A stretch of 64,000 nt of DNA. Origin: Planctomycetota bacterium (GTDB lineage: Bacteria > Planctomycetota > UBA1135 > UBA2386). Made by a program: the position numbers and the translations under genes. The DNA is taken from positions 128,001 to 192,000 of the forward strand of contig JBKAGP010000001.1 in NCBI GenBank assembly GCA_046290465.1, given 5' to 3'. This document shows, one piece after another, positions 14,783-51,598 of the stretch. Every line of letters begins with the position of its first letter. The first letter of the stretch is position 1. The notes under the pieces were generated by a model. The model searched no databases. It had not been told where the DNA came from and worked only from the letters and a program-made list of their open reading frames with translations.

Positions 14783-15907
14783 CTAGTGGGCGCGGAAGGT
14801 CATCTGGGTGGCAGAACGGTACGTCTGCCCCGGCTCGAGCACCGTGTCGGGGAAGTTCGCGTGGTGGATCGCGTCCGGATGGTGCTGGGTCTCGAGGCAG
14901 ATCGCGCTGCGCTGCGGGTAGGTCCGGCCGCCCTTGCCGGTCTGGCCGAACAGGAAGTTGCCGGTGTAGACCTGCAGGCTCGGCTCGGTCGTCTCGATCA
15001 CCATCGAGCGGCCGGTCGGCTTGTGCTGCAGTTCGGCGACGCGGCGCATCGTGCCGGCTTCGCCGTCGAGCACCAGGTTGTGGTCGTAGCCCGCGGCCGG
15101 CGTGTCGACCAGGTGTTCGATCATCAGGCCGAGCGCGGTCGGCTGCTGGAAGTCGAGCGGCGTGCCGAGCACCGGCGCGATCTCGCCGGTCGGGATCAGC
15201 GTCGCGTCGGTGGGGGTGTAGCGCGCGGCGTCGACCTGCAGCGTGTGGTCGAGCACCGTTGCCGAGCCGGCGCCGCCGAGGTTCCAGTAGGCGTGGTTGG
15301 TCAGGTTGACCGGCGTGCGCTTGTCGGTGCGCGCTTCGTAGTCGATGCGCAGCCGGTCGTCGGCGTGCAGCGTGTAGGTCACCGCGATCGACAGCTCACC
15401 GGGGTAGCCCTCTTCGCCGTCGGGGCTCGTGTAGGTGAACCGCAGCGCCGGCGCGCCGTCGGCCGTCCTCTGGCGTTCGGCGTTCCAGGTGACCTTGTCG
15501 AGGCTGCGCTCGGCGCCGCCGTGCAGGTGGTTGGGGCCGTTGTTCTTGGCCAGCACGTAGTCGTAGCCGTCGAGCGAGAACTCGCCGTTCGCGATCCGGT
15601 TGCAGACGCGGCCGGTGGTGCAGCCGAAGTACTGGTTGCGGTCCGACTGGTAGCCGGCCACGTCGTCGAAGCCGAGGATCACGTCGCCCAGGAAGCCGGC
15701 GCGGTCGGGGACCCGCACGGCGACCAGGGTCGCGCCGTGGTCGGTGACATCGACCTCGACGTTGCCGTTGCGCAGCGTCCAGAGCGTCGCGGGGCGACCC
15801 TCCGAGTTGCTGCCGAAGTGACGGGACGTGATGGCGTTCTCGGGGAGTTCGGGCATCGACGAGCAGGCGGCGAGGAGGGCCAACGCCGCGAGGGTGGGAC
15901 GCGTCAT
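14783..15907 (-). CDS. galM: Aldose 1-epimerase (galactose mutarotase), predicted lipoprotein
   Basis: Start MTRPTLAALALLAAC (lipobox). GRVCNRI, NHLHGG, NLTNHAYWNL and ICLETQHHPDA motifs. Confidence 0.93.
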   Translation of the reverse strand: MTRPTLAALALLAACSSMPELPENAITSRHFGSNSEGRPATLWTLRNGNVEVDVTDHGATLVAVRVPDRAGFLGDVILGFDDVAGYQSDRNQYFGCTTGRVCNRIANGEFSLDGYDYVLAKNNGPNHLHGGAERSLDKVTWNAERQRTADGAPALRFTYTSPDGEEGYPGELSIAVTYTLHADDRLRIDYEARTDKRTPVNLTNHAYWNLGGAGSATVLDHTLQVDAARYTPTDATLIPTGEIAPVLGTPLDFQQPTALGLMIEHLVDTPAAGYDHNLVLDGEAGTMRRVAELQHKPTGRSMVIETTEPSLQVYTGNFLFGQTGKGGRTYPQRSAICLETQHHPDAIHHANFPDTVLEPGQTYRSATQMTFRAH

Positions 15908-15973
15908 AGCGACGCAGGCTAGCCCGCCGGCAGGGCCCATGCCAACGGCGCGTGGCCGTCGCGGCTGCGGGCC

Positions 15974-16012
15974 AAAAGAAAAGCCCCGCGGCCGTCTCGA
16001 GCCGCGGGGCTT
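15974..16012 (-). terminator. Intrinsic terminator, unit A
   Basis: 12-bp stem AAGCCCCGCGGC/GCCGCGGGGCTT followed by a T-tract on the minus strand. Confidence 0.85.
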
Positions 16013-16068
16013 CGTTCGTTCTGGTTCCCGACACCACACCGGGAACCACCCAAGTCTGCAACCATGCT
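15974..16068 (-). ncRNA. Candidate small RNA A (~95 nt)
   Basis: Lies between an ECF-type promoter (16073-16099) and terminator A. Internal hairpin GGTTCCC..GGGAACC is preceded by CTTGGGT, as in unit B. Confidence 0.55.
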
Positions 16069-16072
16069 CAGG

Positions 16073-16099
16073 AACGTGGGCACCAGGCCCCACGTTGCA
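16073..16099 (-). promoter_or_regulatory. ECF-sigma-type promoter, unit A
   Basis: TGCAAC-N17-CGTT on the minus strand. Confidence 0.65.
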
Positions 16100-16182
16100 C
16101 CATGTCTCTACGGCTTCGACGGGGTTGGCGGCTCGTCCTTTCGCATTCCTCGGTGGAACGGCTCCTGCCGACTGCCGGGGAC

Positions 16183-16368
16183 CTGATCACTTGGCTGTTG
16201 GTCCGCTGCGTGCCAAGGCAGCCACACCCCCCAGAGCCGCCGGCGAGGCCATGTTCGGGCCCTGCGGCGTCACCGGAGGGCCAGGCGGGGCGATTCCTCA
16301 CGAAATGCGGACCAGAGTCCCGATCACCCTGCCACGGTCGCCGCGGCGACCAACAACCAAGTGGTCAG
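16183..16368. ncRNA. Candidate structured RNA (~186 nt) closed by a long stem; identity unknown
   Basis: CTGATCACTTGGCTGTTGGTC pairs with GACCAACAACCAAGTGGTCAG, extended inward by CCGC.GCG..GGCAG/CTGCC..CGC.GCGG. Confidence 0.4.
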
Positions 16369-16406
16369 CTGCATCTGGTGCCGTGGGCCGTATCTGGGCG
16401 AGCCCG

Positions 16407-16447
16407 AAACGAAAAAGGCCCCGCGGCAGGACCGACTGCCGCGGGGC
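16407..16447 (-). terminator. Intrinsic terminator, unit B
   Basis: Stem GCCCCGCGGCAG/CTGCCGCGGGGC followed by CTTTTTCGTTT on the minus strand. Confidence 0.85.
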
Positions 16448-16500
16448 GAGGGCTCGACCTTGGCTCCCCCTCAGGAGCCACCCAAGGGATCGAGCAAGGG
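16407..16500 (-). ncRNA. Candidate small RNA B (~90 nt)
   Basis: Promoter at 16505-16530, nested hairpin GCTCGA..CCTTGG..GGCTCC-TGAGGG-GGAGCC..AAGG.TCGAGC, then terminator B. Confidence 0.55.
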
Positions 16501-16504
16501 TGGT

Positions 16505-16530
16505 AACGCCGGAGCGGCCGCCGTGTTGCA
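16505..16530 (-). promoter_or_regulatory. ECF-sigma-type promoter, unit B
   Basis: TGCAAC-N16-CGTT on the minus strand. Confidence 0.65.
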
Positions 16531-16551
16531 TGTCGCAGCGGTGTATCGGTC

Positions 16552-16589
16552 AAAAAACAAAGCCCCGCGGCTGTCCGACCGCGGGGCTT
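16552..16589 (-). terminator. Intrinsic terminator, unit C
   Basis: Stem AAGCCCCGCGG/CCGCGGGGCTT followed by TGTTTTTT on the minus strand. Confidence 0.85.
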
Positions 16590-16676
16590 CGTGCCCGGTC
16601 GGCGCCTCGTCCCAAAGGCGCCGCGGTTTCCTCTCGGGGGCTCCCCCTCAGGAGCCGCGCATCTGCGATGCACGGG
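16552..16676 (-). ncRNA. Candidate small RNA C (~125 nt)
   Basis: Promoter at 16681-16707. Contains the 18-nt hairpin identical to unit B (16639-16656), a GGCGCC hairpin, and terminator C. Confidence 0.55.
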
Positions 16677-16680
16677 GAGG

Positions 16681-16707
16681 AACGTCGGGCCGGTTGGCGG
16701 CGTTGCA
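16681..16707 (-). promoter_or_regulatory. ECF-sigma-type promoter, unit C
   Basis: TGCAAC-N17-CGTT on the minus strand. Confidence 0.65.
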
Positions 16708-16751
16708 GCCGGGCCCGGATTCGCGGCACGGGGGTGGCCTCAGCGGCGGCG

Positions 16752-17447
16752 CTACTTCGCCGGAACGAACAGCCGGACCTGCTCGAGCGCGACCTCGTCG
16801 AGGTGGCCGGTGCGGGCGTCTGCGATCGCGTGCAGGTGGCTCTGTCGGTTGTGGTGGGTCAGCTGGCCGGCGGCGTCCTCGACGTAGAAGCCGACCAGCG
16901 TCAGGTCGTCGGCCGGCCCGTCGTAGCGCCACGGCGACGGGCCGGTCGGGTTGGCGATCGGGCAGGCGCCGGCGATGACGTGCATCCGCAGGTTGCGGGC
17001 CCGGCCGGTCACTCGCACCGGCGTCGGCGCGAACGGGTCGACGCCGCGCTGGCGCAGCGCCTCGCCGATGCGCTGCTCGAGGGTCGCGTAGTCGGCGCAG
17101 TCGGGCAGCGGCAGCTCGGTCCACGCGGCGACCTCGCACGCGACCAGCAGGGTCGCACGCTCGCCGGGGCGGGCATCGCGCATCGCGACGTCGTCGCCGA
17201 CGCGTTCGGCGACCAGCGCGCGACCGTCGGCGATCGTCACCTCGCCGCGTAGCCCGGCGAGCGCGCCGACGCCGACCGCGGTCGGGGTCGCGACGTCGGT
17301 GAGCACCACCCGGCCTTCGTCGTTGCCGTTGCGCATCACGTCGCGCAGGCCGCCGAAGGTGCGCACGGGGCCGGTGGCGGGCGGCGCGGTGCAGCTCGCC
17401 AGCAGCAGCACGGCCAGCAGCGCGACCAGCATCGGAGCACGGTTCAT
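16752..17447 (-). CDS. Lipoprotein with alpha-acetolactate-decarboxylase-like fold
   Basis: Start MNRAPMLVALLAVLLLASC (lipobox). GVGALAGLRGEVTIADG and LVGFY..HLH..GHL resemble ALDC motifs. Confidence 0.65.
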   Translation of the reverse strand: MNRAPMLVALLAVLLLASCTAPPATGPVRTFGGLRDVMRNGNDEGRVVLTDVATPTAVGVGALAGLRGEVTIADGRALVAERVGDDVAMRDARPGERATLLVACEVAAWTELPLPDCADYATLEQRIGEALRQRGVDPFAPTPVRVTGRARNLRMHVIAGACPIANPTGPSPWRYDGPADDLTLVGFYVEDAAGQLTHHNRQSHLHAIADARTGHLDEVALEQVRLFVPAK

Positions 17448-50200: not shown

Positions 50201-51002
50201 AGAGGATCGCGCCGAGCGCGTAGACGTCGGTGCGTTCCCCGATGGCGTCGCGCTGTCCCAGGGCCTGTTCGGGCGCCATGTACGCTGGGGTGCCGAGCAT
50301 CTGGCCCGTCAGGGTGGCGCCTGCCTCGCTGCCGAGCTCGCGCGCCAGGCCGAAGTCGCAGACGAACGCGTCGCCGTCGCCGTCGAGCAGGACGTTGCCC
50401 GGCTTGAGGTCGCGGTGCATCACGCCCTTGCCGTGCGCGTACGCCATCGCGGAGCTGACCTGCAGCAAGAGCTTGACGGCTTGCGTCGTCGGCATCGGGC
50501 CTTCCTCGAGGCGCTCGGCGAGCGTGCAGCCGTCGACGAGGTCCATCGTGAAGTAGACGAAGCCGTCGGTCTTGCCGACCTCGTGCACCGAGACGATGTG
50601 GCGGTGGCGCAGCCTGGCGAGGCTCTTGGCCTCGCGCTCGAAGCGGCGGATCGCGTCGCCGAACAGCAGGTCGCCGGGCCGCAGCACCTTGACGGCGAGG
50701 TCGCGGTCGAGCGATTTCTGGTGGGCGCGGTAGACGACGCCCATGCCGCCGCGGCCGAGCTCGTCGAGCACCTCGTAGTCGTCGGAGAGCCGTGGGGGCG
50801 CGAGGTCGTGCTGCTGTGCCACCGCGTCCTCGCCGAGCACGTCGTGCATCGCGCGCAGCGCCTGCAGCGCCTTGAGCACGTCCGGCTGCGGGATTGCGAA
50901 GCGTTCGGCCAGCTCGCCGGTATCGATCGACTGCCCGGCGTCGAGCGCCTGCTGCAGCTTGTCGCAGAGCTGGCCCATGCGTTCTTCGAGGTCGCCGCTC
51001 AC
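47268..51002 (-). CDS. Ser/Thr protein kinase paralog 1, translationally coupled to the ECF sigma factor
   Basis: Same kinase motifs as paralog 2; GTG start overlaps the ECF stop; 1244 aa. Confidence 0.93.
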
Positions 51003-51598
51003 GCAAGGCCTCCGACCTCGCCGAGCAGGTCGCCGAGCCGCACCGTCGCGCGGCCGATCAGCCGCCGGACCGACGTCGGGCTGGTGCCGATGCGCTCGGC
51101 GATCTCGGCGATTTCGCGGCCCTCGAAGTGGCGCATCAGCAGCACGTCACGTTCGTCTCCCGGCAGCGAGGTGATCGCCTCGGCCAGCCACGTGCGCCGT
51201 TCGCTGCGGCCGGCCTGCGTCAGCACGCCGGTCTGCTCGGCCTCAAGCCGGTCGATCAGCTGCGACACCCGCGCGAGTTCGCCGGGCGAGCGCTTCTTGG
51301 CGCCGTGGTATTCGGCGCGCGTGCGGATCTGGTTCTCGGCGATCTGGCACAGCCAGCGAACGAACGATCCGGGACCGCGATCCTCGAACCGACCGAACGC
51401 CTGGTGCGCGGCCAGGTAGGTCTCCTGCAGCAGGTCGCGCGACTCCTCGCGGCTGCGCAGCTGCTTGCCGAGCCGGACGCGCAGGTACAGTTCGAGCCGG
51501 GCCGCGGCGTGTTCGAACAGCTGGTCGTAGGCTTCGGGGTCGCCTTCCCTGGCGCGGGCCAGCAGCTGCAAGGTCTCTGGGTGGTCGTTGTGGGGCAT
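50999..51598 (-). CDS. ECF-type RNA polymerase sigma-70 factor (kinase-associated)
   Basis: [31 protein letters not shown] and region 4 [23 protein letters not shown] at 51598. Confidence 0.93.

Follow-up and report, generated by a model that had tools for sequence, protein, structure and literature searches.

An array of three putative sibling small RNAs behind ECF-type promoters in a planctomycete genome

Introduction

The locus analysed here has several described counterparts. In Listeria monocytogenes, the LhrC1-5 RNAs, about 110 nt long, are encoded in five copies whose individual promoters are co-regulated, and a C/U-rich motif within them pairs with Shine-Dalgarno (SD) regions in a regulation for which Hfq is dispensable (PMC4132741). 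An ECF-driven small RNA (sRNA) of about 90 nt, FoxI, is found in Fusobacterium nucleatum, a bacterium without Hfq; for FoxI, as for MicA, RybB, VrrA and MicV of the sigmaE arm, SD pairing with envelope-protein mRNAs has been predicted or shown (PMC9546586). Similarly, OmrA/OmrB, PrrF1/PrrF2 and AbcR1/AbcR2 are tandem paralogs that combine shared with divergent segments, OmrA/OmrB being associated with Hfq; the copy number and linkage of such tandem siblings vary among relatives, and an insertion element splits omrA from omrB in one strain (PMC4211561). A survey from 2022 put the Rfam sRNA families of the whole PVC group at only eight (PMC9029176), and the literature consulted, as available and mostly without subscription papers, holds no description of the present family or of ECF-driven sRNAs in Planctomycetota.

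The window, a stretch of 64,000 nt from a Planctomycetota genome (assembly GCA_046290465.1, contig JBKAGP010000001.1, positions 128,001 to 192,000), contains a gene-free gap for which an earlier note had proposed three sibling sRNAs of one ECF regulon. Comparison across genomes now suggests that these units belong to a likely undescribed family of regulatory sRNAs that is restricted to one uncultured genus. The preferred reading, held at a probability of roughly 0.6, is that they are sibling sRNAs which would repress translation by pairing with SD regions.

Anatomy of the array

The gap between the start of galM (15907) and the stop of a gene resembling alpha-acetolactate decarboxylase (ALDC; 16752) measures 844 nt (15908-16751), and a codon model trained on this genome calls no gene in it, which bears out the roughly 840 bp without a credible ORF that had been reported. 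The promoters, hairpins and terminators previously placed in three minus-strand units likewise all hold in the sequence (Table 1). The ALDC-like gene is the upstream neighbour of the array in several relatives also, and the nearest relatives of galM lie mostly in Planctomycetota metagenome-assembled genomes. For each unit, the RNA start is predicted about 6 nt past CGTT and the 3' end is placed at the U-tract.

Table 1. Coordinates of the array, its neighbours and related elements (window positions, or genome positions where prefixed by C1)
Feature	Position	Strand	Basis
galM, aldose 1-epimerase, flanking gene	14783..15907	-	PF01263, E 2e-94
Alpha-acetolactate-decarboxylase-like flanking gene	16752..17432	-	PF03306, E 4e-7
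Unit C (gamma type), promoter motif TGCAAC-N17-CGTT	16681..16707	-	Sequence; orthologous units carry the same motif
Unit C, predicted RNA, ~124 nt	16552..16675	-	Fold z -5.7; alignment; covariance model 63 bits (training sequence)
Unit C, shared hairpin GGCUCC-UGAGGG-GGAGCC	16639..16656	-	Sequence; covariation in gamma alignment
Unit C, intrinsic terminator and U-tract	16552..16587	-	Terminator scan; stem 16587-16562
Unit B (beta type), promoter motif TGCAAC-N16-CGTT	16505..16530	-	Sequence
Unit B, predicted RNA, about 88-90 nt	16412..16499	-	Fold; beta-unit comparison
Unit A (alpha type), promoter motif TGCAAC-N17-CGTT	16073..16099	-	Sequence
Unit A, predicted RNA, ~94 nt	15974..16067	-	Fold; alignment; alpha units in G011, G013
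MITE, 186 nt, 21-nt terminal inverted repeats	16183..16368		Two copies elsewhere, 85-86% identical
1.18-kb IS copies (G000)	C1:1-1177, 123781-124959, 5916070-5917250, 6110739-6111918		21-nt inverted ends
Dispersed unit	C1:5551739	-	Promoter motif, hairpin, terminator; unrelated context
Dispersed unit	C1:1421935	+	Promoter motif, hairpin, terminator; unrelated context

Unit C comprises a 5' hairpin, the shared hairpin, an extra hairpin (16601-16622) that is missing from other gamma units, and the terminator. Unit B is predicted to fold into a long hairpin with a GCUCGA/UCGAGC base and the shared hairpin on top, followed by the terminator, and unit A has a CUUGGGU-GGUUCC stem, a different, G/U-rich loop (16023-16047) and its own terminator. 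The 18-mer hairpin is identical in units C (16656-16639) and B (16479-16462), CTTGGGTGGYTCC is common to units A and B, and terminator stems of the form GCCCCGCGG...CCGCGGGGC lie at 16587-16562, 16447-16418 and 16010-15983, a U-tract following each. A terminator scan finds five terminator-like sites against 0.6 +/- 0.8 in shuffles, and the folding z-scores of the bodies are -5.7 for unit C and -3.6 and -4.0 for the other two.

Sibling sRNAs comprise at least two homologous genes, each with its own promoter and terminator; there are five such genes in this genome and one to three per relative. This separate equipment of every unit departs from the arrangement of a type III toxin-antitoxin RNA array, and the genes downstream of the units are galM or a convergent sulfatase, as against the toxin gene expected of such a system. 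The three units also lack the terminal inverted repeats, or the many dispersed promoter-less copies, by which MITE and REP elements are recognised.

A true MITE, overlooked in the earlier note, fills most of the space between units B and A; it stands outside the RNA family and is missing from the arrays of relatives. The same 21-nt ends bound four copies of a 1.18-kb IS of this genome, of which the MITE is a non-autonomous relative, and about seven MITE derivatives of 186-196 nt. The ORF of the IS (355 aa) gives a weak IS1-transposase match (33 bits against a cut-off of 100) and no Pfam match.

RNA structure and constraint

Conservation and covariation in relatives, the lack of which had been named as a refuting outcome, are found within the genus. 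In 12 gamma units, 95% of the cells pair, compared with 39-53% in slid controls; changes on both sides affect 8 of 20 pairs, of which six belong to the terminator and the other two to the first hairpin, and the covariation score of the alignment is reached by none of 500 shuffles. For instance, hairpin pair 27-40 occurs as UA in five units, CG in four and UG in three.

Constraint is also visible at strain level. A strain contig (X3) departs from the array region by 27 base differences and one gap; among the 26 substitutions itemised, the 307 bases of the unit bodies carry 1 and the remaining 442 intergenic bases carry 18 (p = 0.0007), the latter becoming 10 in 256 when the MITE is set aside (p = 0.003). 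No reading frame is common to all unit types, and the combination of an intrinsic terminator with the lack of a conserved reading frame is that of ECF-driven sRNAs.

Family members and lineages

The genome holds five units, namely the array of three and two dispersed ones. Dispersed unit D lies in antisense orientation between the genes of two exported proteins (479 and 474 aa) that are paralogs of each other and belong to no Pfam family (L021:5072-8269; G000:C1 about 5550070-5553270).

A covariance model (CM) built from 16 bodies, with the promoters left out, gives strong matches in G001, G002, G009, G010, G011 and G013, all of them training sequences, and a new match of 60 bits in G006, where the -10 is intact and the -35 degenerate; clear members by CM are present in 7 of the 14 other genus genomes, and on metagenome contigs besides. 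G008 and G012 each have one decayed unit in the syntenic ALDC-galM gap, with the terminator and a hairpin kept and the promoter lost, which may be transcribed from another promoter; both decayed units (L382, G008:C150; L384, G012:C28) retain GAGGCATGGTTCGAWGTGGAGAG. Nothing convincing was found in G003, G004, G005, G007 and G014, genomes that are 71-90% complete. The metagenome matches listed with the family terminator come from four loci; two of these nearly duplicate G011 and G001, which leaves L259 and L265 as the new ones, the latter being a two-unit array beside a pilin-like gene.

Beyond the genus, the CM returned no convincing unit in 76 other family genomes, in each of which 46 candidates were scored, so that divergent members may be missed. 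Patterns joining the promoter to the hairpin or to the terminator gave no convincing unit outside the genus in 91 family genomes, and the exact hairpin pattern had three chance matches, none with the motif, in 400 other phylum genomes. The hairpin pattern also matched 10 viral contigs, none family-like, and a loose promoter+GGHTYC pattern matched all 201 of 201 genomes, at control level. Extra-genus CM matches below about 40 bits were rejected as generic terminators or tRNA 3' ends; among those inspected, 1 of 27 is preceded by the motif, but in its body it does not resemble the family. With Rfam 15 the window yields no match at gathering score, and the best of 30 weak matches in the gap reaches 24.8 bits, all being sub-threshold and mostly terminator-driven, which agrees with the previous statement that no known family could be matched.

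The units sort into three types, gamma (unit C), beta (unit B) and alpha (unit A). Beta units are 78-90% identical across four genomes; unit B is 78-86% identical to the beta units of G002, G009 and G011, whereas its identity to the remaining units of the same genome is 63-71%. Wherever several units occur, their order is gamma, beta, alpha. The conservation of the types across genomes and this constant order imply that the array predates these species, and on such comparative grounds each of the three array positions represents an orthologous lineage of its own, one that arose before the species diverged. The earlier proposal of sibling sRNAs in one ECF regulon is thus upheld as regards paralogous non-coding units behind one ECF-type motif, which the comparison supports, with the refinement that these units are not interchangeable.

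Promoter motif and candidate sigma factors

The consensus of ECF promoters has a spacer of 16-18 nt and the positions C-31, C-13 and G-12 (PMC7776599; PMC7826278 for ECF background). The spacing of the present motif and these three positions agree with that consensus, and a bipartite ECF-type promoter with a spacer in this range precedes each RNA. In 19 units, GCAAC and CGTT are 89-100% conserved and most spacer columns 32-75%, a difference that arises partly by construction because the units were listed by motif. Base +6 is a purine in 15 of the 19, units B and C of the window being exceptions with C, and base +5 is never G.

The genome scan for TGCAAC-N16/17-CGTT that had been suggested divides in its outcome: taken alone, the motif shows no enrichment (15 sites, with about 12.5 expected), whereas the motif joined to a terminator does, a strong terminator following GCAAC-N16/17-CGTT at 5 of 136 sites and at 2 of 1356 with control spacings. 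In a metagenome scan by a hairpin-only pattern, where 5 short-context matches were dropped, the family terminator is present in 5 of the 113 full-context matches among those listed; the motif stands upstream of all five and of none of the other 108.

Setting four unit sites aside leaves 11 full-motif sites, of which 9 are intergenic (27 of 89 at control spacings; p = 0.0015) and 6 precede a good ORF (17 of 123 controls; p = 0.0035). Among the genes downstream of motif sites are those for DUF2203, PEP-CTERM and redoxin-domain proteins, for Hcp and for a Ser/Thr kinase. Of the 15 genus genomes, 10 keep an exact copy of the motif upstream of DUF2203, G001 and G003 differ from it by one change each, and G007, G008 and G012, all three without intact units, no longer have it, although kin genomes are not independent in this or any other count across genomes; in G008 and G012 it is gone both there and at the sole decayed syntenic unit. 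Taken across these comparisons, the units are very probably real ECF-driven transcripts.

Two side observations concern this regulon. Upstream of the DUF2203 gene (G000:C1:5814229-5814657; L400-L414), a GTCACACTA element is kept in nearly all 15 genomes and is possibly another promoter or operator. The Hcp-family gene (G000:C1:2114534-2115170; L389) lies downstream of TGCAAC-N16-CGTT, its 5' leader measuring about 150 nt.

Matches to sigma region 2 number 98 in the genome, and a residue filter, numbered against Escherichia coli RpoE, kept about 40 of 97 sigma factors. The ECF at 50999-51598, one of the 98 and raised in the earlier note as a possible cognate, falls away, no ortholog being present among the sigma loci compared from G001, a 94%-complete genome with an intact unit, and from G014 (best identity 31-35%). 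Another ECF, C1:6391495, is ruled out as it was not found in G001 or G013. One factor that matches the profile of presence in G001 and G014 and absence from G007, G008 and G012 is ECF C1:2765693, of the TIGR02989 type. Every one of the seven genomes whose units are fully intact has it, as does G014, while it was not found in G003-G008 or in G012 (for G012, among 11 of 19 sigma loci compared). Because the DUF2203 promoter is retained in G004, G005 and G006 although they lack this factor, it is only a candidate, and a tentative one, for the cognate sigma factor; shared genome reduction could also explain the profile match. Separately, ECF G000:C1:6437814-6438326 has TGCAAC-N17-CGGT just upstream of its start and no ortholog among the compared sigma sets of relatives, and is possibly autoregulatory or a member of the regulon of the units.

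Proposed mode of action and predicted targets

Under the preferred reading, the three units would be separately transcribed as sibling sRNAs of 88-124 nt under the control of a single ECF sigma factor, for which TGCAAC-N16/17-CGTT is the predicted recognition motif, with transcription running from about 6 nt past CGTT to the U-tract. In the beta and gamma units, pairing would begin between the UGAGGG loop and a CCCUCA that immediately precedes an AGGAG ribosome-binding site, after which the 5' arm GGYUCC would invade across that site and translation would be repressed; alpha units would address other targets through their own G/U-rich loop. If the transcripts are ECF-driven, action by mRNA pairing is their most plausible function, with fair odds in its favour.

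The segment GGYUCC-UGAGGG is the most conserved one of the beta and gamma units and is the complement of CCCUCA-GGAGYC, an SD site with its upstream flank; beta and gamma share this seed, and that of alpha differs. The anti-SD arm sits paired within a GC-rich stem. PF17209, PF04352 and PF13083 have no match in the genome (94% complete), where Hfq, ProQ, KhpA/B and likewise CsrA were looked for and not found. The chaperone gene that belongs to an Hfq- or ProQ-dependent sRNA is therefore missing from what was searched, and pairing would be chaperone-independent or mediated by an unknown protein.

The top predicted target is the fasciclin gene C1:2846538, which has a perfect 15-nt match across the SD. 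In an unbiased scan this site ranks first of 4892 initiation regions at -31.7 kcal/mol, the next reaching -25.0. The expectation of such a match is 0.0009 in the SD-anchored register, and a 15-nt match anywhere in the initiation window is obtained with 4% of bodies after shuffling and with 10% of 52-mers taken from real intergenic sequence. In none of the other genus genomes examined, unit-bearing ones included, do the fasciclin homologs have the site, and the closest fasciclin orthologs belong to genomes without intact units or to G010, which has a variant loop. Observed apart from the units, a second conserved ECF-type motif, GCATCC-N16/17-CGAA, stands upstream of most fasciclin homologs across the genus (L326, L327-L349), and an ECF gene directly follows the fasciclin gene, an arrangement reminiscent of the SigK regulon.

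A second candidate site precedes the gene of an exported TPR protein (C1:6187987) and is broadly kept across the genus. It is also strong in G007 and G008, both without intact units, and weak with the genome's own seed in G001, G006 and G013 (-17 to -18 kcal/mol) and in G010 (-7.5 kcal/mol), where the changed loop finds no compensation in the target. The site was rejected as one that tracks the RNA, since the eight unit-bearing genomes average -25.4 and the six others -19.0 kcal/mol at p = 0.04 with kin dependence. The product is a conserved exported protein of 278 aa with a weak TPR match, present in 14 of 15 genus genomes (G000:C1:6187987; L365-L378), and an upstream element, GGGACCAATCCGTTACGTGGG, is conserved at most of its orthologs.

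At the level of the whole genome, alpha-seed predictions contain no outlier, and enrichment is seen neither for CTC-AGGAG among ribosome-binding sites (5 of 262, with 2.5 expected) nor for signal-peptide-like genes in the top 20 predicted targets (35% against 31%). It is doubtful that a fuller scheme applies in its entirety, in which a chaperone-less sRNA family would form the non-coding arm of the ECF regulon, the loop-and-arm anti-RBS seed would silence exported-protein mRNAs, among them that of the fasciclin gene at the head of another ECF's operon, which would amount to sigma-to-sigma cross-talk by way of RNA, and the three siblings would be sub-specialised.

Alternative explanations

The foremost alternative is that the ECF-driven RNAs titrate an RNA-binding protein, which would contact the hairpin loop together with two purine-rich flanks, AGACGAG and GAGAUGGGCACGAA. 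A stem kept by compensatory change, unpaired flanks conserved in the gamma units, the suitability of multi-copy arrays for titration and the weakness of the target evidence for mRNA pairing would all fit such a decoy. CsrB, RsmY and RsmZ are sponges of this kind, small terminated RNAs with short hairpins and purine-rich loops. The present units differ from them in that the 94%-complete genome has no CsrA and each unit has a single such hairpin instead of a repeated run of GGA-loop hairpins, by which CsrA sponging in particular is ruled out. Moreover, the types keep different loops and flanks across species, a better fit to different pairing targets, and titration is accordingly regarded as rather unlikely.

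Improbable, too, is a mimic of a translation start, in which an SD-like GGAG followed by AUG in gamma units would act as a sponge for anti-SD sRNAs or 30S subunits. An AUG does lie a few nucleotides past the purine-rich 3' arm in 12 of 12 aligned gamma units, but unit C of the window and the beta and alpha types are without it, and base pairing in the stem engages the SD-like arm.

Just as little room is left for non-functional repeats, that is, duplicated terminators or tRNA-Asn 3' remnants of integrative elements with an incidental motif. The tRNA-Asn trailer (L143; G000:C1:1545965-1546046) has the same 9-bp terminator arms, ends in GAGGAGCCA and is the best non-family CM match at 26 bits, and the family is confined to one genus; generic terminators, however, score equally or higher (20-37 bits), and the promoter boxes, the type-specific bodies and the strain-level constraint are all conserved, and the copies number only five. 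Since all five copies have the motif, the REP-type repeat without a promoter, which had been named earlier as the outcome that would overturn the proposal, is not what is found. A tRNA-derived origin of the units is possible, while present non-function is unlikely. In G088 and G145, several non-tRNA copies ending in GGGGAGCCA plus the trailer resemble integration-site remnants (L120, L122, L125, L130).

That the units are mRNAs for tiny peptides is very improbable, since the 8-codon frame (GUG/UUG to UGA) that all 4 of the 4 beta units have, starting close to their predicted 5' end, shows only amino-acid-changing and no synonymous differences, its bases pair in the fold, and no frame is common to the gamma and alpha units.

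Comparison with known systems

With titration, start mimicry, inert repeats and peptides thus weighed, SD pairing by sibling sRNAs stays the preferred reading. The covariance model and the promoter motif define the family, through which a wider regulon (DUF2203, Hcp, Ser/Thr kinase, exported proteins) becomes readable, and the genus offers a natural loss series of units. The combination of a sigma factor with sibling sRNAs is an architecture of a known kind, and the array would extend this design to an ECF-rich phylum and to a genome without Hfq, ProQ, CsrA and KhpA/B.

Compared with LhrC1-5, the units are alike in being multi-copy, in having their own promoters and in Hfq-free SD pairing, which is predicted here. 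However, LhrC is two-component-driven with near-identical copies, whereas the units have an ECF-type promoter and three diverged lineages; the UCCC motifs of LhrC lie in loops and a single-stranded stretch, whereas the anti-SD bases of the units lie in a stem; and the two share no sequence or Rfam match. FoxI is described as one sRNA whose sigma dependence and targets have been tested, whereas the sigma factor and targets of the units are candidates; together with the sigmaE arm it addresses envelope-protein mRNAs, whereas the predicted targets of the units are not enriched for exported proteins. The PrrF1/PrrF2 and AbcR1/AbcR2 RNAs are, in addition, associated with Hfq. OmrA/B, PrrF and AbcR are pairs in Proteobacteria, whereas the present array has three members in a planctomycete; it resembles the OmrA/B kind, with no homology to it, in its tandem arrangement, its varying copy number and the element inserted between copies.
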